This document shows positions 12,530-42,391 of a DNA stretch of 64,000 nucleotides, in pieces. The position numbers and the translations under genes are program-made. The first letter of the stretch is position 1. Each line of letters starts with the position of its first letter. Below the pieces are notes generated by a model that made no database searches, was not told the DNA's origin, and saw nothing but the letters and a program-made list of their open reading frames with translations. Location of the stretch: assembly GCA_963787705.1 (NCBI GenBank), contig CAWBEA010000002.1:67661-131660 (forward strand). Reading direction: 5' to 3'. Source of the DNA: Vulcanimicrobiota bacterium. Its GTDB lineage: Bacteria; Vulcanimicrobiota; Vulcanimicrobiia; Vulcanimicrobiales; Vulcanimicrobiaceae.

Positions 12530-12879
12530 GTGATGGCTTAGCGGCGTAAGCTGCTCAGGTAATGCGGCATCCGTGAGCGTCGGGAACGATCAGCCAAGGA
12601 GCCAGAGCCGCTGAAACGACGCCCCCCCTCCCCCGGCCATGCCGCCAAGCGATCGAAGCCGGGCTATGCTGCCGGGCTGGGCTGTGCCGCTAAGCGATCC
12701 ACGCCGCTACGCTGGCGCAGCAGCAATGCCGATCCACGCTGCAACGCCCGCAATGCAGCAAAGCCCTCGTAGCCGCATAGCAAACACGGCCCGCTTTCGC
12801 GAACGCCGTGCTGAGGGGTGGAGGCGCTACGGTTTGTTTATTTTTTTTTTGCGGTCATATACTTTGAGCCACAAGCGCC

Positions 12880-13002
12880 CTAAAGACGTTTAGCCCATAC
12901 CCGCAGCAGGATGGCGATGCCGACGCACGCGGCAGCAGCGCCGTCGAGAACCCACTGCCACGGGCCCCAGTTGTTTCTCCATGCAGGTCGATTCACCGCC
13001 AT
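12880..13002 (-). CDS. possible small membrane protein (40 aa)
   Basis: My own translation is MAVNRPAWRNNWGPWQWVLDGAAAACVGIAILLRVWAKRL. It starts 33 nt after the stop of the last paralog gene. No clear SD. Below the ORF-track size cutoff. Confidence 0.2.
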   Translation of the reverse strand: MAVNRPAWRNNWGPWQWVLDGAAAACVGIAILLRVWAKRL

Positions 13003-13035
13003 GCGCTGCGCGCAGATCGTGATTTGCGAAAGGTA

Positions 13036-14089
13036 CTAGTGGTAAGCAGCAACGCTGACTGCGGCAGCTGTTGGCTCGCCGTAACCAGGCAGTTCCGTTA
13101 ACAGCGCGCCACTCGGATATCTAAATACGAAGAAATCCCCGTCGTAGCCGGGGTAAGCCCTAGGTACGACAATTCGGTTTCCCTGAATCCAGAACTGACC
13201 TAATTGCCCTCCCCTTGTAACTCCGCTAAGCACCGTGTGTCCAACGGCTACCGCGTGATCGTGATGCCTCCCACGCAGCTCGAAGCGTAGAATTCTGGGG
13301 ATATGATTGCGATAGCCTACCAACGCCAGCTTGCCGTGGTTCCACTGGACACCAGCAGACGAGTCTACGACAAAAGCGTCCCCGCGGAATTCGATTTGCG
13401 AAAAGCCTTGTCGGCGCCGACGCAACTCCTCAAGCACGGTCGCGGCGCTATAGTAGTACTTCGAGCCGACTACAAAAAGATGGCCGTGGTCGTCGTAGCC
13501 GCAATAGCCAGCTTCCGGGAAGACATTGCTGTACTCAGTTGGTGTGCCCGAGCCCCGAGGGTAGACGAAAACCACGCTGGAGTTGGATCCTTGCCCGACC
13601 ACACCGGCGTAGTATCCTTGCGCGACCACCGCTAGATCGCCAGTACTCGGGTCGATCGCACACGACCGTAAATAGGAGTAAATGCTCCCCGGGTTAGGAA
13701 TTGCCCTAATCGGCTCGGTTCCGCCATGAGCGTATTCAACGACCTCAGTCTCATCGACAATATACATGTTTCCGCTGGCGTCGACGCACTCACCGAAGGG
13801 CTGATTTCCGTTTTGGAGCTCCCCAACTAGTGACAAGCCGGGGAACGAATAAACAAATACGACCCCATTGCCGCCAGAGTCTGCAAGGTATAGCAAATCC
13901 TGACCCGAGGTGCCCGATTTCATCCACGACTTGCCACGATCGGCGTGCGCTGCGAATGCGGCGGTTTGCGGCATAGCGCCCGGCGCGGCCGATCGGCGGC
14001 TGCGATCCGCCGCACCCCGCGAGCAGCGCAGCGACGGTAACGCTCAGCGCGCGGCTGCTACAGATTAGGCGTTCCACCCCTGTGCTCAT
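13036..14089 (-). pseudogene. lipoprotein paralog A of the 13-18.6 kb family, disrupted by a +1 frameshift after the signal peptide
   Basis: The signal peptide and lipobox (MSTGVERLICSSRALSVTVAALLAGCGGSQPPIG) lie in ORF 13790..14089, whose ATG overlaps the upstream stop (ATGA at 14086-14089). The body lies in ORF 13036..13974 (MPQTAAFAAHADRGKSWM...). There is one extra nt in CGGCGCGGCCGATCGG at about 13981-13996 compared with copies B and C. Confidence 0.6.
13965..14025 (-). repeat. conserved leader cassette, copy A (carries the 1-nt insertion)
   Basis: TTTGCGGCATAGCGCCCGGCGCGGCCGATCGGCGGCTGCGATCCGCCGCACCCCGCGAGC aligns with the copies at 15012, 16037 and 17026. Confidence 0.7.
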
Positions 14090-15141
14090 TTGACGATTTG
14101 CTTTAAGCTCACGGCCACGCCATAGGGTCGGTCAAGGTTCTTGTAAATTTGGGCGATGACACTTCCGCCCGCGGGGTACTTCCAGTAGGTAACGGCAGCA
14201 TAGTCATAGGTGGTCGCTCCGACGACTTGAGTTCCTTGGCTTCCGGGGTGGTTGTTATAGATAAAAACAGGGCCAAGCCCAAACTCCACGCCGCTAAGGT
14301 ACGTCGTTCCAATCCAATGGCCCAGGTCACGTCCTATCGCGACGCGATAGATTTCATTGGAATAGCTCTCAGTGTTGAGGATCCAATACTTCCCGTCCCA
14401 CGTAATTCCCTGAACGCCGTTGAAGTAGCCGTCCCAGGAAGATCCGCCCGAGATGTTGATGGTGACGAGTTGCGTACTGCCCTTGGCAAGGTACGCGAAG
14501 CCTGAACCATAGCCGCTGGAGCTTTCACCACCGTCTGTCGTTAACAGATCACCTTTGTCGTCGTAGGCGCAGCTTTCGTAGTGACCCAAAGGACCCTGGA
14601 AGATGACGGGTTTGCCTTTGGCGTGGCGATAAATCGCGAGGCTACCCTCACCGGTCCCATCACCTTGCCACCAGTTCGCGACGGCGAGATTACCGGTCTT
14701 TGTATCGACAGCACATCCGTAGGGCCAATATGGAGCGACATTGATAACTCTGATGGGACTCTTACTGCCGTGTGAGTACTCAACGACGTCGTTTGCTTCA
14801 AAATCCACAATATAGACGTCGCCAGCTCTGTCAACGCATTCACCCCTTGGCGAGATGAAGCCGGTTAAGACCCCGACGAGCTTTCGGTGCCAATACCGGT
14901 AAGTACGCACGTTGCCGCCGACCTCCTCACTCACGTACAGCAAATCGTCGCTCTTCGCTTCCGGCAGCATCCACGATCCATCGCGCGCCGCCTGCGTGGC
15001 GATCGCCGAGCTTTGCGGCATCGCGCCCGGCGCCCCGATCGGCGGCTGCGATCCCCCGCACCCTGCAAGCATTGCCGCAGCCAGAATGCCCAACGCGTAA
15101 CGCGTAGGCAGTAGTGCGTTCATTGTTCTTGCCTTTGTCAT
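14086..15141 (-). CDS. lipoprotein paralog B (beta-propeller-like, uncharacterised family)
   Basis: MTKARTMNALLPTRYALGILAAAMLAGC-GGSQPPIGAPGAMPQ. Blocks DDLLYV, GDVYIVD, VVEYSHGSKSPI, CAVDTKTGNLAV, WDGKYW, WKYPAGG, GVAVSL. ATGA overlaps at both ends. Confidence 0.75.
   Translation of the reverse strand: MTKARTMNALLPTRYALGILAAAMLAGCGGSQPPIGAPGAMPQSSAIATQAARDGSWMLPEAKSDDLLYVSEEVGGNVRTYRYWHRKLVGVLTGFISPRGECVDRAGDVYIVDFEANDVVEYSHGSKSPIRVINVAPYWPYGCAVDTKTGNLAVANWWQGDGTGEGSLAIYRHAKGKPVIFQGPLGHYESCAYDDKGDLLTTDGGESSSGYGSGFAYLAKGSTQLVTINISGGSSWDGYFNGVQGITWDGKYWILNTESYSNEIYRVAIGRDLGHWIGTTYLSGVEFGLGPVFIYNNHPGSQGTQVVGATTYDYAAVTYWKYPAGGSVIAQIYKNLDRPYGVAVSLKQIVK
15012..15070 (-). repeat. conserved leader cassette, copy B
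   Basis: TTTGCGGCATCGCGCCCGGCGCCCCGATCGGCGGCTGCGATCCCCCGCACCCTGCAAGC. Confidence 0.7.
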
Positions 15142-16148
15142 CGATGGATGCGCGTACCGGATGGGGCGAGGGAAACGGTGACTGCGCCAATTGTGGCGTG
15201 CGGTAACAAATCCCTAGACGGAATCCTCTTGGTCACCCTTCCACCCGTCGGATAAGGCCAAATGCCAATCGTTCTTTGGTGGCGATTGTTGCTAACGACA
15301 AGCAGGTCCCCCGCGAGCCAAGGCTGGGCCCCTCGTTCGACCGTTCCTTCGAGTTGTACGATGCCGACAATTGTTGCGGTTGAGCCGCTTACTTCGATTT
15401 GGGAAAGCGTATTTCGGCCTGAACCGAGAAAAGCGTCGAGAATGAGGTACTGACCGTCCCATTGCAGGGAGCCTGCAGGATAGTCTTCACGGGGCAGTGA
15501 GAGATTCTCAAGGTTACCGGAACCTTCAGGTAACTCGGCCAGCTGAATCGAGCCCGAAGAGTTCTCGCCATCCACATAGAGATTGCCCGCGCTGTCGTAG
15601 ACGCAAGCTTTTATGGTTTGAATCTGAGGGTCTTGTAGCTTTTCAGGATTGTGTGAGCCTTCTGTAAAAATCGCAACGTAATCGTAAAAATTATCGAATA
15701 GCACAGTAGCAGCAAGATCATCCGTTATTGGGTCTACGGAGCAGGAAATAGCAAAGCCATCATTGTCATCTAACGAGAACGTTTTAATGGGTGTCTTTCG
15801 GCCATGTGCAAACTCCAGGATGTCCGCCCCGCTAACTATGTATACGTTGCCGTCGGGGTCCGAACACGACGCGCTCGGATAGACAACAATGTTTAGCATG
15901 CCGACCGGCTTTCCGCCCGGAAAGCTAAACACGCGAACGGTGTGCCCTCCGTCATTCACATACAGCAAGTCTTCACTCTTCGCTTCCGGCAGCATCCACG
16001 AGCGGCCGCGCTCGGCGTGCGTTGAGGTCGCAGAGGTTTGCGGCATCGCGCCCGGCGCGCCGATCGGCGGCTGCGATCCGCCGCAGGCCGCTAGTAACGC
16101 TGTCGCCACGCAACTTGTTAGCGCGTTGCGTTTACTGCGCGTGGTCAT
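15138..16148 (-). CDS. lipoprotein paralog C (beta-propeller-like, uncharacterised family)
   Basis: The ATG at 16148-16146 overlaps the upstream stop (ATGA). MTTRSKRNALTSCVATALLAAC-GGSQPPIGAPGAMPQ. Blocks EDLLYV, GNVYIV, ILEFAHGRKTPI, CSVDPITDDLA, WDGQYL, WPYPTGG, AVTVSLAP. Confidence 0.75.
   Translation of the reverse strand: MTTRSKRNALTSCVATALLAACGGSQPPIGAPGAMPQTSATSTHAERGRSWMLPEAKSEDLLYVNDGGHTVRVFSFPGGKPVGMLNIVVYPSASCSDPDGNVYIVSGADILEFAHGRKTPIKTFSLDDNDGFAISCSVDPITDDLAATVLFDNFYDYVAIFTEGSHNPEKLQDPQIQTIKACVYDSAGNLYVDGENSSGSIQLAELPEGSGNLENLSLPREDYPAGSLQWDGQYLILDAFLGSGRNTLSQIEVSGSTATIVGIVQLEGTVERGAQPWLAGDLLVVSNNRHQRTIGIWPYPTGGRVTKRIPSRDLLPHATIGAVTVSLAPSGTRIHR
16037..16095 (-). repeat. conserved leader cassette, copy C
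   Basis: TTTGCGGCATCGCGCCCGGCGCGCCGATCGGCGGCTGCGATCCGCCGCAGGCCGCTAGT. It has 2 mismatches to copy B over the 50-nt core. Confidence 0.7.
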
Positions 16149-17200
16149 TGCCAGCCAAAAACCACAAGGCCGTCCCCTGCGGCGTTCTTCCATCCAGGCC
16201 ACGTACGAAACGTAAATGCGCCTGGCTCGACATATGACGATCCGCCCCCTCCACCGCCGCCGGGGGACCCGTTTATGCCTCCTTCACCCCCACCGCCGCC
16301 GCCACCACCGTAGTAACCGCCGCCTCCGCCGCCGCCCGCGCCGCCGTCGCCGCCGCTCGTCTCTCCAAATCCGGCCTCGCCGCCGTTTCCTCCGACGCCG
16401 CGTCCTCCGGATTTACCGCGCTGGCCGCGGTCGCAATCGTAACAGCTTTTTGGTGCACGCTCGCCGCCCGAGCCGCCCCGACTCTGCGTGCCGCCCCCAC
16501 CACCACCACCCGCACCGCCGCCGTAGCCGCCCGCGCTCCCAGAGCCGCCTACAGAACCTCCGCCTCGACCACCAGCGCCACCACCGTTTTCATAACCACC
16601 TTGTCCTCCTCCGCCGCCTGCAACCAGGACGCGATTGCTCAGCCTGGCAGAGTCTTGCCGTACGTCGGACGCACCGCCGCCGCCAAAGCCACCCGCACAA
16701 CATTGTGCGGGATCACCTCCGCCGTTGAAGCCGCCATATCGGGCCCCGCTGTATTCGATCCCGGCCCCCCCTACGTAGACGTACAGCCTTTCACCGGGAG
16801 TGACTGGAATTTCAGCGTAAACGCGGGCACCGTGGCCGCTGCGAGTGTCGTAATACGTCGGTTCACCACCACCAGCGCCGCGCGCGACGATAGTGAGCTT
16901 CGTAACGCCCGCCGGCACTTTGAATGTTTGCTTCGATCCCGTGAACTTAAACGTCTCATGAAACGGCAGTCCGGAGCCGTCGGGCCTATCAGACGTGTGA
17001 CCGAGATGCGCCGCGACAGCACGGCTTTGCGGCATCGTGCCTGGTGACCCGATCGGCGGCTGCAATCCGCCGCACCCTGCGAGCAATATCACAGCCATGC
17101 ATCTTGCAAGTGTGTAGCGTCCAATAACTAAGCTCTTAATCTGCTTGGCTCCTCGAAAACGGCTCACAGTGAATCGAACCTGGGTCACTCTAATCAACAC
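16145..17200 (-). CDS. glycine-rich-domain lipoprotein (bacterial homolog of the ALK/LTK-type Gly-rich domain)
   Basis: Same leader (ILLAGC-GGLQPPIGSPGTMPQ), then FKFTGSKQTFKVPAGVTKLTIVARGAGGG...GERLYVYVGGAG and long Gly tracts (GGGGGGG, YYGGGGGGGGEGG), ending SSYVEPGAFTF. The start is ambiguous (GTG 17200, TTG 17197, GTG 17188 or GTG 17167). Confidence 0.75.
   Translation of the reverse strand: MLIRVTQVRFTVSRFRGAKQIKSLVIGRYTLARCMAVILLAGCGGLQPPIGSPGTMPQSRAVAAHLGHTSDRPDGSGLPFHETFKFTGSKQTFKVPAGVTKLTIVARGAGGGEPTYYDTRSGHGARVYAEIPVTPGERLYVYVGGAGIEYSGARYGGFNGGGDPAQCCAGGFGGGGASDVRQDSARLSNRVLVAGGGGGQGGYENGGGAGGRGGGSVGGSGSAGGYGGGAGGGGGGGTQSRGGSGGERAPKSCYDCDRGQRGKSGGRGVGGNGGEAGFGETSGGDGGAGGGGGGGYYGGGGGGGGEGGINGSPGGGGGGGSSYVEPGAFTFRTWPGWKNAAGDGLVVFGWQ
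17026..17085 (-). repeat. conserved leader cassette, copy D
   Basis: TTTGCGGCATCGTGCCTGGTGACCCGATCGGCGGCTGCAATCCGCCGCACCCTGCGAGC. Confidence 0.7.
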
Positions 17201-17654
17201 TCTTCGACAGTTCTAAAACGATCTTCCATTCGTGCGGCATCACCGGCTGCACGGAGAGCCGTTGCCCGCGCCGCAGCAACGCCATGCCAACCAGCCGTGG
17301 TTCGGCGCGCATGCGCGCAAGCGATACCGGATTCTCAAACGCTTCGACGTATGCAACGTCGACCATGAACCAAATTGGTTTGTCGGGCCTCGCGCGTCCG
17401 TCGAAGTACTCCCCCCCGCGCTCGAACTGAGTGAAATCGGGATAGGCCGCCTTGACGACCTTGCAAACGCCGACGGCCGCCGGCTCTGTAATGCTGGAGT
17501 GGTAGAAGAGCCCGAGGTCGCCGAGCCGCATCTCCATCATGTTGTTTCGCGCCTGGAAGTTGCGCACGCCGGTCCACGGGGTCGTGCCCTCTTCGCCTAG
17601 CCGCTCGAATGAATAGGCGCTTGGCTCGGTCTTCATGAGCCAGTAGCGAGGCAC
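17190..17654 (-). CDS. EVE (PUA-like) domain protein
   Basis: MPRYWLMKTEPSAYSFERL...WTGVRNFQARNNMMEMRLGDLGLFYHS...YPD is a canonical stand-alone EVE domain. The GTG start shares nt 17654 with the upstream TAG. Confidence 0.85.
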   Translation of the reverse strand: MPRYWLMKTEPSAYSFERLGEEGTTPWTGVRNFQARNNMMEMRLGDLGLFYHSSITEPAAVGVCKVVKAAYPDFTQFERGGEYFDGRARPDKPIWFMVDVAYVEAFENPVSLARMRAEPRLVGMALLRRGQRLSVQPVMPHEWKIVLELSKSVD

Positions 17655-18625
17655 TACGGAGCCAGGCTAACGGTCACCGCCTGGCTCGGATCCGGGGGAT
17701 GCAAAACCTTGAAGGCTTCCCCGCCGGCGGGATACTTCCAAAAACTAAGCGAGTTGCCGCGGGTTGCCACGAGCGTGTTGCCCTCGATCCACGACTGCCC
17801 CGCATTCTTCTGGCGCCAGTCGACGAAACGGCTGACGCCGGCGATCGTTCCGGTTGAGCCGGAAACTTGCACGCGGAAGTAGTGCACGTTAACGTTTTCG
17901 CCATCGTGCTTCGTCGCCGCGTAGGACTGCAGGGCAAAGTACTTGCCGTCCCACTGAGCGTGGGCGACGTTCCCGATCGTCTCGTTTAGCTTGATCTTTT
18001 CAAGCTCTTGTTTGCCTTTCGGAAGCAGCGCGGCCACATTTCCGCCGCTGATAACGAAAAGGTTGCCGCTCGCATCGTAGGCCGGTTGTGGGTCGGCTCC
18101 CAGTTCTTCGCTGTGATACAGCTTTGCCTCGCCGCTGCCGCCGGTGTAAATTTCGACTAACGGAGCGAAGTTATGAACGTCGTAGCTGGTAACCGCAAGG
18201 TTTCCCGTCGTGGGATCGCTCGAGCAGTTTACCGGAATCTCATGGGCAGGAACGTCGAGGGTGCTGATGGGCGATTTCGTTCCATGGGCGTATTCGTAGA
18301 CATATCCGGTGAGCGCGCCCGACTTAGCTTGAACGACTGCCGTGACGAAGACGTCGCCTTTGGCATCCGAGCACATCGCCTGAATCAAGAACGGCGTCCT
18401 GAACGTACCTTCAAAGGCGCCGCCCGGATAGGTAAAAACGATGGCCCTGTGTTTGGCGCCGGCGTAGATCAGGTCGGTCTGCGATCCTGCGCGGCGCGCG
18501 AGAAGGGCTTTGTCTAGCGGTGCAACCGGGCTCGTGCTGGGCGCAAGCCCCGCGCAACCGGCAAGCGTGACCGTAAGCACGCACAGGCACGCTGCGTAGC
18601 GCAACGCGTGGATCGGCCTAAACAT
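17654..18625 (-). CDS. lipoprotein paralog E (same body family, different leader)
   Basis: The ATG at 18625-18623 gives MFRPIHALRYAACLCVLTVTLAGC. Blocks TDLIYAG, GDVFVT, YEYAHGTKSPI, CSSDPTTGNLAV, WDGKYF, WKYPAGG, AVTVSLAP. The upstream part of ORF 17654..18913 is antisense to the cupin gene. Confidence 0.7.
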   Translation of the reverse strand: MFRPIHALRYAACLCVLTVTLAGCAGLAPSTSPVAPLDKALLARRAGSQTDLIYAGAKHRAIVFTYPGGAFEGTFRTPFLIQAMCSDAKGDVFVTAVVQAKSGALTGYVYEYAHGTKSPISTLDVPAHEIPVNCSSDPTTGNLAVTSYDVHNFAPLVEIYTGGSGEAKLYHSEELGADPQPAYDASGNLFVISGGNVAALLPKGKQELEKIKLNETIGNVAHAQWDGKYFALQSYAATKHDGENVNVHYFRVQVSGSTGTIAGVSRFVDWRQKNAGQSWIEGNTLVATRGNSLSFWKYPAGGEAFKVLHPPDPSQAVTVSLAP

Positions 18626-33070: not shown

Positions 33071-33640
33071 TTATTGCGCCGGCAGGCTCACGGTGACGGC
33101 GATGGGTTCGAGCGCGGCGAACAGCGTCTTCGACGGCTTGCCGCCTTTGGGATACGGATAGACGCTAACGCCCGAGGAGCTGTTCGTCCAGAACGGCGTG
33201 TACAGGCTCCGAACGCCGCCGACGGTTTGAATCCAAAAACCGCCGGGGTAGCTTCCCTCGTCCAGTTTTACCGAACCGACCTTCGTTGCTTTGCCGCCGC
33301 TGACAATAAACCGATAGATAAGGCCGGAATCTTGGCTTCCAACGGCGAGGTATTTCCCGTCCCAGAAGAGCCCCGAGATATTCTGACCGCCCAAGCTCTG
33401 ACGCAGCGCGACGTCGGCAAATTTATGCGCTCCATTCGGCAGTTCCGCAACCTGGGGCTCGTAGGTCGTCCCGTTGATGCCGTCGACAAATAGGTCGCCG
33501 TCGTAGGTGCAGAACCCTAACTGATGGATGTTGGTAACGGCGTACTGTTTCGGCGTACCTTTGGCGTGCTTAATGAGGGCGTAGTTAATGCGAGATTACC
33601 GCTGCCCAAGCGAGTCCGGCCAGCCCCACAACAAAAATCC
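33071..33640 (-). pseudogene. 5'-truncated, frameshifted remnant of the 13-18.6 kb lipoprotein family (copy F)
   Basis: The ORF 33071..33394 ends WDGKYLAV...YPYPKGGKPSKT...IAVTVSLPAQ. My translation upstream continues in frame as INYALIKHAKGTPKQYAVTNIHQLGFCTYDGDLFVDGINGTTYEPQVAELPNGAHKF. It is blocked by TAA at 33596-33598. SGNLA lies in another frame. There is no signal peptide. Confidence 0.55.
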
Positions 33641-33658
33641 ATCTCGTATGATTCATTG

Positions 33659-34753
33659 CTAGAGTTTTATGCGGCCGAGTTGGTCGGCGTTGGATTCGAC
33701 AAACCACATGTTGCCGTCGGGCGCGGCGGTGATGGCGGTTGGCTGCGAGCCGGGCCTCAAGCCCCGCGAGTATTCGGTGATCTTGCCGCTGGTCGTGATC
33801 CGGCCAACCTTCGAGTCGCGTATCCCGGACGTCTTATAGGTTTCGTATTCGGTGAACCAGAGCGCGCCGTCGGGACCGGCTGCGATGCCGGCCGGCTGTT
33901 CGGCCGGCTTGATCCCACGCGAATACTCCGTTACCATGCCCGCTAAAGTAATTCGGCCGATGCGACCGCCGGCCATCTCCGTGAACCAGAGCGCGCCGTC
34001 TGGTCCGCTCGAAATCGAATTCGGCTGCGATCCCGACGATATCCCTTTCGAATACTCGGTGACCTTGCCGCCCATCGTTATGCGCCCGACGCGATCGAGG
34101 TTTGGCTCGGTGAACCAAAGCGCCCCGTCGGGTCCTACGGTAATGCCGTTGACGGCGGCATTCTGTGAGAGGCCCTTCGTGTAGAGCGTGAGGTGCCCGC
34201 TCGTCGTCATCCGCCCGATAGCCGTCAGCTCAAAGCCGTTTTCGGTAAACCAGAGCGCGCGGTCGGGGCCGGCGACGATTTCCTGAGGCTCGGCGCCATC
34301 GAGAGTAAACGTGCTAAACGATCCTTGTGTGGTCACCCGCACGATCTGCGCATCGCCCCAATCCGTCAGCCAGAGCGCGCCGTCCGAGCCTGCGGCGATG
34401 CCTTTGAACGCCGGGCTCGCGGAATTGTGGTAGTAATAGGTGTTCGTGCGTTTTCCGGCGGTGGTGACGCGCGCTATCGCGCTGGCGCCGAGATCCTGAT
34501 CTATGTCGTCGGCAATCCAGAGCGCTTTGTCCGGCCCAACCGTAAGAGCGGCTGGAAAGTAGCCACCGTCGTATTGGGGCAGATCGGCGAACTCCTTGAT
34601 CTTGATGCCCTTGACGGCTGGACGGACCGAAGGCGCAGAATCTCCCCTTGCGATAAGGGCGCCGGGAAGTGGCCCGGCTGACGTTGAGCAGGCGGCCGTC
34701 CCCGCAGCAAGAGCTGCGAGTACGAGGTTGCTGACGGGGCGGGTGGCTTTCAT
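33659..34753 (-). CDS. virginiamycin B lyase-like (COG4257-type) 7-bladed beta-propeller lipoprotein
   Basis: Lipobox GTAACS. Seven repeats of the GPDGALWFTE / ITEYS pattern. Confidence 0.7.
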   Translation of the reverse strand: MKATRPVSNLVLAALAAGTAACSTSAGPLPGALIARGDSAPSVRPAVKGIKIKEFADLPQYDGGYFPAALTVGPDKALWIADDIDQDLGASAIARVTTAGKRTNTYYYHNSASPAFKGIAAGSDGALWLTDWGDAQIVRVTTQGSFSTFTLDGAEPQEIVAGPDRALWFTENGFELTAIGRMTTSGHLTLYTKGLSQNAAVNGITVGPDGALWFTEPNLDRVGRITMGGKVTEYSKGISSGSQPNSISSGPDGALWFTEMAGGRIGRITLAGMVTEYSRGIKPAEQPAGIAAGPDGALWFTEYETYKTSGIRDSKVGRITTSGKITEYSRGLRPGSQPTAITAAPDGNMWFVESNADQLGRIKL

Positions 34754-40559: not shown

Positions 40560-40632
40560 TTCCGTCCGGCGCGCCCATCTCTTCCAAAAGCGCCCGGCTG
40601 CCTGGGAAGAACCGCGTTTCAGGCGTATAGAG

Positions 40633-40722
40633 TCCGTGCGCGGGAGCTAAATTAGGCTGAGAGGGCGGCCCCGAGCCGCCGACCGCACGTAACCTGATCC
40701 GGATAATGCCGGCGTAGGGAGG
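40633..40722 (+). ncRNA. TPP (THI-box) riboswitch
   Basis: CGGGAGC ... CTGAGA at 40657-40662 ... AACCTGATCCGGATAATGCCGGCGTAGGGA at 40691-40720, directly upstream of thiC. The 3' GGGAGG doubles as the SD, 8 nt before the ATG. Confidence 0.85.
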
Positions 40723-40726
40723 ATAA

Positions 40727-42391
<1,665 letters not shown>

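Follow-up and report, generated by a model that had tools for sequence, protein, structure and literature searches.

A variable insert of predicted lipoprotein genes beside a conserved propeller-EVE gene pair in a Vulcanimicrobiota bacterium

Six consecutive minus-strand open reading frames (ORFs) occupy positions 13036-18625 of a 64-kb stretch of Vulcanimicrobiota DNA (contig CAWBEA010000002.1; "the window" hereafter means this whole stretch). The genes are named, in descending coordinates, E, EVE, D, C, B, and A; a preliminary description made from the sequence alone had taken them for one dedicated envelope or surface module and an undescribed system. Here, we report that the block is better read as composite, with E and the EVE gene as a backbone pair and D, C, B, and A as cassettes in a strain-variable slot, which would add to a tethered ligand-binding repertoire evolving by birth and death. 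We give this reading a probability of about 0.6.

Under this reading, each cassette protein would consist of a lipobox-bearing lipoprotein signal of the Sec/LspA type, a conserved Pro/Gly/Ala-rich tether (GGSQPPIGAPGAMPQ), and a single rigid globular scaffold. The scaffold is a six-bladed NHL beta-propeller in A, B, and C, as in E, and a TNF-like/polyglycine domain of the ALK/LTK type in D. Once the protein has been exported and lipidated, its scaffold would be suspended from a membrane of the diderm envelope, and variable top-face loops would confer differing specificities, so that the proteins would act as ligand-binding or recognition modules and not as enzymes or subunits of one machine. 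The repertoire would change by tandem duplication, by insertion and replacement at hot spots, and by decay. Lipidation, cellular location, and binding function are predictions throughout.

Conserved pair and variable slot

The EVE protein is 72 to 93% identical in 80 metagenomic loci, where the backbone runs grx (glutaredoxin), rhodanese, a divergent cupin, E where present, and EVE, facing ppk. Orthologs of E lie directly upstream of EVE in about 17 of these loci (74 to 85% identity in close relatives, 47 to 53% in those farther away), and EVE abuts ppk, with 0 to 150 nucleotides (nt) between them, in about 19. E is thus the positionally conserved member of the cluster, and E and EVE are a conserved pair; no functional link of the other genes to EVE is apparent beyond its conserved adjacency to E.

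D-C-B-A is absent from all 80 EVE loci, in which the slot is empty or holds other cargo. That cargo includes a GloVer-repeat lipoprotein (loci L077 and L078), a 683-amino-acid (aa) double propeller (L078), a PF12810 protein (L088), and one to seven propeller genes in both orientations (L080/L081, L083, L084, and L086), as well as two proteins not scanned against Pfam, one phosphoesterase-like and leader bearing (L082) and one of 943 aa that looks, by eye, like a TonB-dependent receptor (L092). Against its closest relatives (84 to 92% nt identity), the window shows colinear homology from 19300 to the EVE stop (17189-17209), which resumes at the end of ppk (12530). The closest named relatives of the genome are Candidatus Cybelea and Baltobacteraceae. 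G+C content at third codon positions (GC3) is 0.58 to 0.64 in A to D, against 0.725 in E, 0.774 in EVE, 0.763 in ppk, and 0.726 in rhodanese. The homology break, the variability of the slot, and the GC3 shift together identify the block as a conserved pair plus a 4.66-kb variable insert.

The propeller genes were also followed outside this backbone. In 76 loci with family members (1.29 Mb), homologs of EVE, ppk, cupin, rhodanese, and glutaredoxin numbered zero, and the window's order of subfamilies was not reproduced. The arrangement of A to D is therefore not conserved in related genomes, and only E-EVE is kept in the 80 EVE loci; the proposal of a dedicated module does not survive these comparisons. 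A gene order that is not kept in relatives had been named in the preliminary description as one result that would refute the proposal, and for A to D this is what was observed.

The window's cassettes resemble those of relatives at the DNA level only in the leader (33 to 148 nt, up to 98%) and in a hairpin element of about 50 nt downstream of A. The element is also found after cassette genes in L083 and, as two copies per locus, in L080/L081 and L004, and it is possibly a cassette terminator or boundary. A terminator scan of the cluster found a terminator-like hairpin after A only. A run of 10 A residues lies just upstream of the element (about 12841-12850).

Folds of the encoded proteins

A, B, C, and E are paralogs (26 to 35% identity; tblastn E values, 1e-12 to 1e-43), and the motif blocks by which they had been grouped in the preliminary description are conserved columns of a 52-sequence family alignment. 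Against PDB sequences, B matched the PknD sensor domain (E value, 7e-12) and the PknD-derived Pizza designs (E value, 3e-25); the family profile matched PknD (8.6e-20), followed by TRIM2/3 (TRIM-NHL) and Brat (about 3e-4), a list without any enzyme propeller. The single-repeat NHL model of Pfam (PF01436) scored 16.5 bits, below its cut-off of 20. An AlphaFold2 (AF2) model of B, built with 52 family members, had a predicted local distance difference test score (pLDDT) of 86.9 and a predicted template modeling score of 0.82 and was all-beta, with 24 to 25 strands in six four-stranded blades; the C-terminal VTVSLAP-type strand is the inner strand of blade 1 in the model and closes the ring. Foldseek matched the model to six-bladed propellers (Pizza, nidogen/LDLR YWTD, and Brat). 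The four proteins are divergent NHL-type six-bladed beta-propellers. A propeller had indeed been suspected from the strand pattern, although the bodies had been considered impossible to place in any family.

D, whose body had been described as glycine rich, matched PF12810 (ALK_LTK_GRD) at 27.8 bits, above the cut-off of 24.5. Its AF2 model (40 homologs; pLDDT, 81.4) retrieved ALK/LTK structures of the GRD/TG (TNF-like/glycine-rich) domain with Foldseek (probability, 1.0; E values, 4e-7 to 1e-4; TM-scores, 0.33 to 0.44). D thus passes the threshold as a PF12810-type glycine-rich domain with a TNF-like/poly-glycine fold and, with its poly-glycine lattice domain, is likewise best read as a putative binding scaffold. 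The sixth product was confirmed as an EVE protein (PF01878; 175.7 bits; E value, 7e-52; profile positions 1-145 of 145). NCBIfam and PADLOC scans of the six proteins returned no matches.

When blades were assigned from the model, conservation per column in the propeller family was 2.4 to 3.0 bits for the strands and for the A-B and C-D loops, 1.26 bits for the B-C loops, and 1.65 bits for the D-A loops; most insertions inside the propeller are likewise in the B-C and D-A classes. In propellers generally, these two loop classes form the top face, the ligand-binding side. The variable, indel-rich loops would then lie on the top face of the window's propellers, with the bottom loops and the core conserved. 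Most invariant residues belong to the canonical NHL structural motif (F..P.G and D..G turns). Two invariant cysteines, C102 and C143, hold equivalent inner-strand positions of blades 2 and 3 and may form a disulfide.

Shared leader and its 48-nt core

B, C, D, and E have in-frame lipoboxes at residues 24 to 32, after N termini that are basic (K/R containing) and then hydrophobic, and these four, together with A once repaired, look like exported bacterial lipoproteins (predicted Lgt/LspA substrates), in line with the preliminary description. The leader had been viewed as a feature of the block. A leader hidden Markov model detected 229 ORFs in 77 sequences, however, and 57 of the 229 lack a propeller body; they include PF12810 proteins, GloVer-repeat proteins (TIGR03803; E values, 1e-65 to 1e-80), PF04185 phosphoesterases, PF00082 subtilases, and Vgb_lyase-type propellers. 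Because the CGGSQPPIGAPGAMPQ leader stands on such unrelated proteins, it represents a lineage-wide lipoprotein signal with a Pro/Gly/Ala tether and is not specific to the block.

Within the leader lies a 48-nt core, TGC GGC GGA TCG CAG CCG CCG ATC GGC GCG CCG GGC GCG ATG CCG CAA, of which the window has four copies (D, C, B, and A) and which also occurs in 13 to 14 other loci; E has its own leader, without the canonical core. Core DNA is about 85 to 98% identical among genes whose bodies are about 34% identical (only 34% over the 100 residues past the core) or have unrelated folds. Among copies with the canonical peptide, GGA encodes Gly2 in 26/26 (background, 15%), TCG encodes Ser in 96%, ATC encodes Ile in 100%, and CAA encodes the last Gln in 25/27; invariant Gly codons in the propeller bodies are at background frequencies. 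Third-position identity at identical residues was 0.81 to 0.82, both within and between loci, versus 0.49 expected, a figure to be read with the caution that picking copies by amino-acid similarity inflates apparent synonymous conservation. Leaders with diverged peptides lose the codon pattern. The core reflects either nucleotide-level constraint or a common ancestry younger than that of the bodies (mosaic evolution by recombination).

Three candidate explanations do not account for the conservation of the core. GATC sites, two of which are created by the GGA and ATC codons, were not enriched (0.48 versus 0.43 per 54 nt in 190 leaders); RNA structure in the core was not significant (z, 0.0 to 0.6); and core identity was 0.853 within loci versus 0.865 between them, which gives no support to gene conversion or concerted evolution within a genome. 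No long homopolymers were found in the leaders.

Decay and turnover of family copies

Gene A is split into two frames, a leader ORF (13790-14089) and a body ORF (13036-13974), by an extra C at 13987/13988 (region 13982-13994) in the conserved leader core, within a stretch that is otherwise near-identical to B and C. Deleting this C in silico restored an intact 350-aa lipoprotein of the family. Five products with lipoboxes had been counted previously; since the LAGC leader of A is out of frame with its body, the present sequence leaves four of them (B, C, D, and E) with a lipobox in frame. Because the body of A is otherwise intact, the gene either became a pseudogene through a very recent mutation or carries an indel introduced in assembly.

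A sixth family copy, degraded and N-terminally truncated, lies at 33071-33742 on the minus strand as a 107-aa ORF with out-of-frame similarity, and it overlaps the 3' end of the neighboring gene. That region also contains a 364-aa lipoprotein with a different leader (33659-34753, minus strand), a Vgb_lyase-family propeller (PF24684; E value, 1e-79) with repeated GPDGALWFTE, which adjoins the remnant. Fragmented family copies occur in other loci as well, and a large protein collection contained at least 144 distinct leader-only ORFs of 32 to 79 aa that end at varied points past the leader (P0241-P0360). One of these has the same sequence on six contigs, with an out-of-frame remnant behind it (L157/L158, 4001-4180), which argues against random sequencing noise; in L157, the upstream genes have been replaced by an IS21-type element. 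The frameshifted A, the 33-kb remnant, the fragments, and the leader-only ORFs point to frequent gain and loss.

Family size and distribution

At 90% identity, the propeller family comprises at least 2131 clusters and the D family at least 2997; clustering at 50% identity gave 3361 clusters of the propeller family with E values of ≤1e-30. Where source names are given, both families come mostly from Candidatus Cybelea, Baltobacteraceae, and Eremiobacteraeota. A genome scan (one genome per species, patterns of the B-like subfamily) returned 73 loci, most of them in metagenome-assembled genomes of Eremiobacterota/Vulcanimicrobiota, with six labeled Acidoferrum (3) or Acidiferrales (2 named plus 1) and two labeled "uncultured bacterium." That the family looks confined to one phylum is due in part to the query, because the scan patterns are specific to the B-like subfamily. 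For the loci labeled Candidatus Acidoferrum/Acidiferrales (Acidobacteriota; L014, L015, L067, L069, and L071), misbinning, mislabeling, or horizontal transfer is possible.

Arrays are the usual arrangement of these genes. Loci of about 20 kb contained a mean of 4.06 family or leader genes; 70 of 171 runs were same-strand tandems of two to six genes, and mixed arrays included PF12810, GloVer, phosphoesterase, and subtilase lipoproteins. Integrase-like genes occur in 8 family loci. The closest B homolog (83% identity) adjoins a phage-type integrase, a resolvase, and an RHS toxin, and a D homolog belongs to a series of seven leader-bearing genes beside a transposase. Clustering of ORFs from the 77 sequences gave no conserved partner near the arrays, in that no non-family cluster was found in more than 18 loci; the commonest recognizable ones were ribosomal-protein genes beside one subfamily. 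In L011, L054, L073, and about 10 other family loci, rplA, rplJ, and rplL lie within about 20 kb, a neighborhood that hints at a positionally conserved family member elsewhere in the genome.

A different array of three propeller genes recurs in L010, L011, L013, L014, L025, L027, L029, L030, L033, L038, L045, L047, L050, and L072, where its members are B-like (about 45% identity), divergent (about 30%), and B-like (about 40%); some subfamily arrangements are thus conserved, though the window's is not. Proteins of 550 to 680 aa with two family domains (P0361-P0368 and others; L078, 10581-12632) either represent genuine fusions of tandem genes or result from gene calls that read through.

Layout of the block

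The ORFs and overlaps described previously were confirmed. ATGA stop/start overlaps join B to A (14086-14089), C to B (15138-15141), and D to C (16145-16148), and nt 17654 is common to the TAG of E and the GTG start of the EVE gene, a 1-base overlap also present in close relatives. The general claim of 1- to 4-nt junctions holds for these overlaps but is less firm at D and B, the starts of which are ambiguous. Candidate starts of D are GTG at 17200, 17188, and 17167 and ATT at 17140; the last is the start conserved in the family (MKSL...; ATG in relative L077) and is preceded by a GAGGAG ribosome-binding motif (17154-17149; region 17132-17154), so that translation of D may begin at this rare codon or at one of the GTG codons upstream. 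For B, ATG 15123 is a possible start, being the one used by its 83%-identical homolog, and this would leave a 14-nt gap between C and B in place of the overlap. No internal promoter-like site in the cluster exceeded chance expectation, and tRNA and Rfam scans found nothing near it. All cassettes in the window are in direct orientation.

Table 1. Coordinates of the block and its elements in the window
Feature	Position	Strand	Description
Gene E	17654..18625	-	NHL-type six-bladed beta-propeller, predicted lipoprotein, 323 aa; lipobox LAGC, Cys codon 18556
EVE gene	17190..17654	-	154 aa, GTG start, PF01878
Gene D	16145..17167	-	Predicted lipoprotein with ALK/LTK-type TNF-like/glycine-rich (TG) domain; LAGC, Cys codon 17074; start uncertain
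Gene C	15138..16148	-	NHL propeller, predicted lipoprotein, 336 aa; lipobox LAAC, Cys codon 16085
Gene B	14086..15141	-	NHL propeller, predicted lipoprotein, 351 aa; lipobox LAGC, Cys codon 15060
Gene A	13036..14089	-	NHL propeller, predicted lipoprotein gene, interrupted by +1 C at 13987/13988
Leader core of D	17027..17074	-	48 nt, Cys codon to CAA; encodes CGGLQPPIGSPGTMPQ
Leader core of C	16038..16085	-	Encodes CGGSQPPIGAPGAMPQ; 97.8% identical over 46 nt to L086 leader
Leader core of B	15013..15060	-	
Leader core of A	13966..14014	-	49 nt because of inserted C
Variable insert	12531..17189	-	D, C, B, A, and 507-nt 3' spacer, between EVE stop and ppk end
Hairpin element	12781..12828	-	About 50 nt; GC-rich GAAA-loop hairpin 12785-12810, then TTTGCT (weak T tract); downstream of A

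Alternative explanations

That the propellers are exported enzymes (lactonase, lyase, or esterase of the SGL/Vgb-lyase/strictosidine-synthase clan), expanded to widen a substrate range for detoxification or nutrient release, is unlikely, though it carries more weight than any other alternative because real hydrolases use the same leader. The leader is fused to PF04185 phosphoesterases, PF00082 subtilases, and Vgb_lyase-like propellers; the Vgb_lyase-family lipoprotein at 33659-34753 adjoins a family remnant; E121, H124, D113, and Tyr residues are invariant; and some relatives have faint precomputed SGL/Vgb matches. Neither B nor the family profile, however, had a significant match to an enzyme propeller, nor did A, B, C, or E match any protein of SGL, lactonase, or Vgb-lyase type significantly in Pfam, NCBIfam, or PDB; the best natural matches, the PknD sensor and TRIM-NHL/Brat, are non-enzymatic. 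The invariant residues, moreover, fall in NHL structural motifs and presumed bottom-face loops, and the usual active-site face is the least conserved. It is this pattern of loop conservation, together with PknD as the nearest relative, that favors binding scaffolds over enzymes. A single module, in which five lipoproteins and the EVE protein would form a dedicated, co-evolved envelope or surface system, would account for the tight or overlapping same-strand junctions, the lack of internal promoter-like sites above chance, and the shared leaders. We consider it very improbable, given that gene order is not conserved, that none of the 76 family loci matches EVE, ppk, cupin, rhodanese, or glutaredoxin, that close relatives (EVE, 88 to 93%; ppk, up to 96%) have the D-C-B-A position empty or filled with other genes, that the closest B homolog keeps company with an integrase, a resolvase, and an RHS toxin, that A is frameshifted, and that GC3 of A to D is unlike that of E and EVE.

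A further possibility concerns the DNA of the leader. The 48-nt core might do more than encode protein and act as a nucleotide element (a recombination joint, or the shared target of a regulator or small RNA) of a phylum-specific plug-in system that exchanges unrelated exported domains, among them NHL propellers, ALK-like glycine-rich domains, GloVer repeats, and hydrolases, between expression slots such as EVE|ppk; this is quite unlikely but, if true, it would allow Eremiobacteria to re-assort their envelope or surface repertoire rapidly. The related proposal of a cassette-exchange or variation system, with the core as recombination joint or shared regulatory target in the manner of Mycoplasma variable lipoproteins with conserved 5' ends, we hold to be decidedly unlikely. 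It draws on the restriction of DNA similarity to leader and 3' hairpin element, on the L077 slot, which opens with a similar ribosome-binding site and leader and continues with a GloVer body in place of D, on the third-position and GGA bias of the core next to background Gly codons and low identity in the bodies, and on the leader-only ORFs (at least 144). Yet tblastn searches of the window with integrase, resolvase, and transposase proteins of other loci gave no match, and there is no tRNA; long simple repeats are lacking, core identity no higher within than between loci gives no sign of ongoing conversion, RNA structure has z of about 0, diverged leaders lose the codon pattern, the choice of copies inflates the synonymous signal, and the similarity of the D and L077 leaders (about 80%) barely exceeds that between leaders in general. 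Least probable of all is that the lipoproteins serve as decoys or immunity proteins to counter polymorphic toxins or effectors aimed at the envelope, in arrays resembling those of orphan immunity genes. One array does adjoin an RHS/Ntox33 toxin gene, and family turnover is high and associated with mobile elements (the integrase-like genes in 8 loci), but that RHS gene already has a small downstream DUF4279 gene in the usual immunity position, no toxin gene stands beside the window cluster or beside the other loci whose gene content was examined, and PADLOC, the library of which does not cover toxin immunity, gave no match.

Several points weigh against the reading of the block as a conserved pair with cassettes for binding proteins, or against its firmness. 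The assignment of the variable loops to the top face follows from general propeller topology and not from coordinates, and invariant E121, H124, D113, Y69, Y193, Y322, and C102/C143 could form a conserved site. The same leader is found on real enzyme families, which leaves room for an enzymatic role. Co-transcription with the EVE gene and translational coupling are suggested by gene spacing, and the frameshift of A could be an assembly error.

Comparison with known systems

The best natural match among PDB sequences, the sensor domain of PknD from Mycobacterium tuberculosis (PDB 1RWI/1RWL), is likewise a six-bladed NHL propeller. PknD and other NHL propellers share with those of the window the blade motif F..P.G-x-x-V-D..G-x-(V/L)-Y-V, and PknD would also resemble them as an extracytoplasmic, membrane-held, presumed ligand-binding scaffold without known enzymatic activity. 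Whereas PknD provides the ectodomain of a transmembrane kinase, the window's propellers would be stand-alone lipoproteins on a Pro/Gly-rich tether. Their blades are much more divergent than those of NHL proteins, as the subthreshold Pfam score reflects; they have family-specific invariants (C102, C143, EYAHGG, WDGKY, and YP.GG), and, unlike PknD, they belong to a family with thousands of members and tandem arrays.

D shares with the ALK/LTK TG domain (PF12810; PDB 7LRZ, 7NX1, and 7MZY) a beta-sandwich interleaved with long poly-glycine stretches but is, unlike ALK/LTK, a predicted bacterial lipoprotein without kinase or EGF modules, and the cytokine binding of ALK is not transferable to it. 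We know of no function for bacterial PF12810 proteins. The EVE protein is typical of stand-alone EVE/PUA-like proteins, with the N terminus M-x-YWLMKTEP; its only oddity is the 1-base overlap with E.

The Vsp/Vlp/Vsa lipoproteins of Mycoplasma and the paralogous lipoproteins of Borrelia are tandem multigene families with a conserved signal peptide or 5' segment, divergent bodies, strain-variable content, and frequent pseudogenes. A conserved 5' leader on divergent members is also a feature of the window's family. Unlike the Mycoplasma type, the window has no homolog of the recombinases of other loci (tblastn), no inverted expression-site architecture, and no simple-sequence repeats, and its bodies are globular folded scaffolds and not repetitive, low-complexity sequence.

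Significance

Only one member of the Eremiobacterota, which abound in peat, acidic soils, and polar deserts, has been cultured. This member has a typical diderm envelope (PMC9758169). Genomes of the phylum carry thousands of genes for two families of predicted tethered scaffolds, in variable islands and with a common leader; a full-text literature search on Eremiobacterota found no description of a lipoprotein or NHL-family expansion. As proteins, the products are new members of the NHL-propeller and PF12810 superfamilies, with known folds and no new mechanism demonstrated; as an arrangement, the block belongs to a lineage-specific multigene family in variable islands and is not the six-gene system proposed previously. 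The leader offers a simple sequence tag by which the phylum's exported lipoproteome can be delimited, the top-face loops are where specificity probably resides, and the conservation of synonymous sites in the leader core is a peculiarity concrete enough to be tested. In practical terms the impact is modest, unless a mechanism of cassette exchange or the ligands are demonstrated.

Elsewhere in the window, a TPP riboswitch (RF00059; 58.4 bits) was detected at 40630-40737 on the plus strand, unrelated to the cluster.

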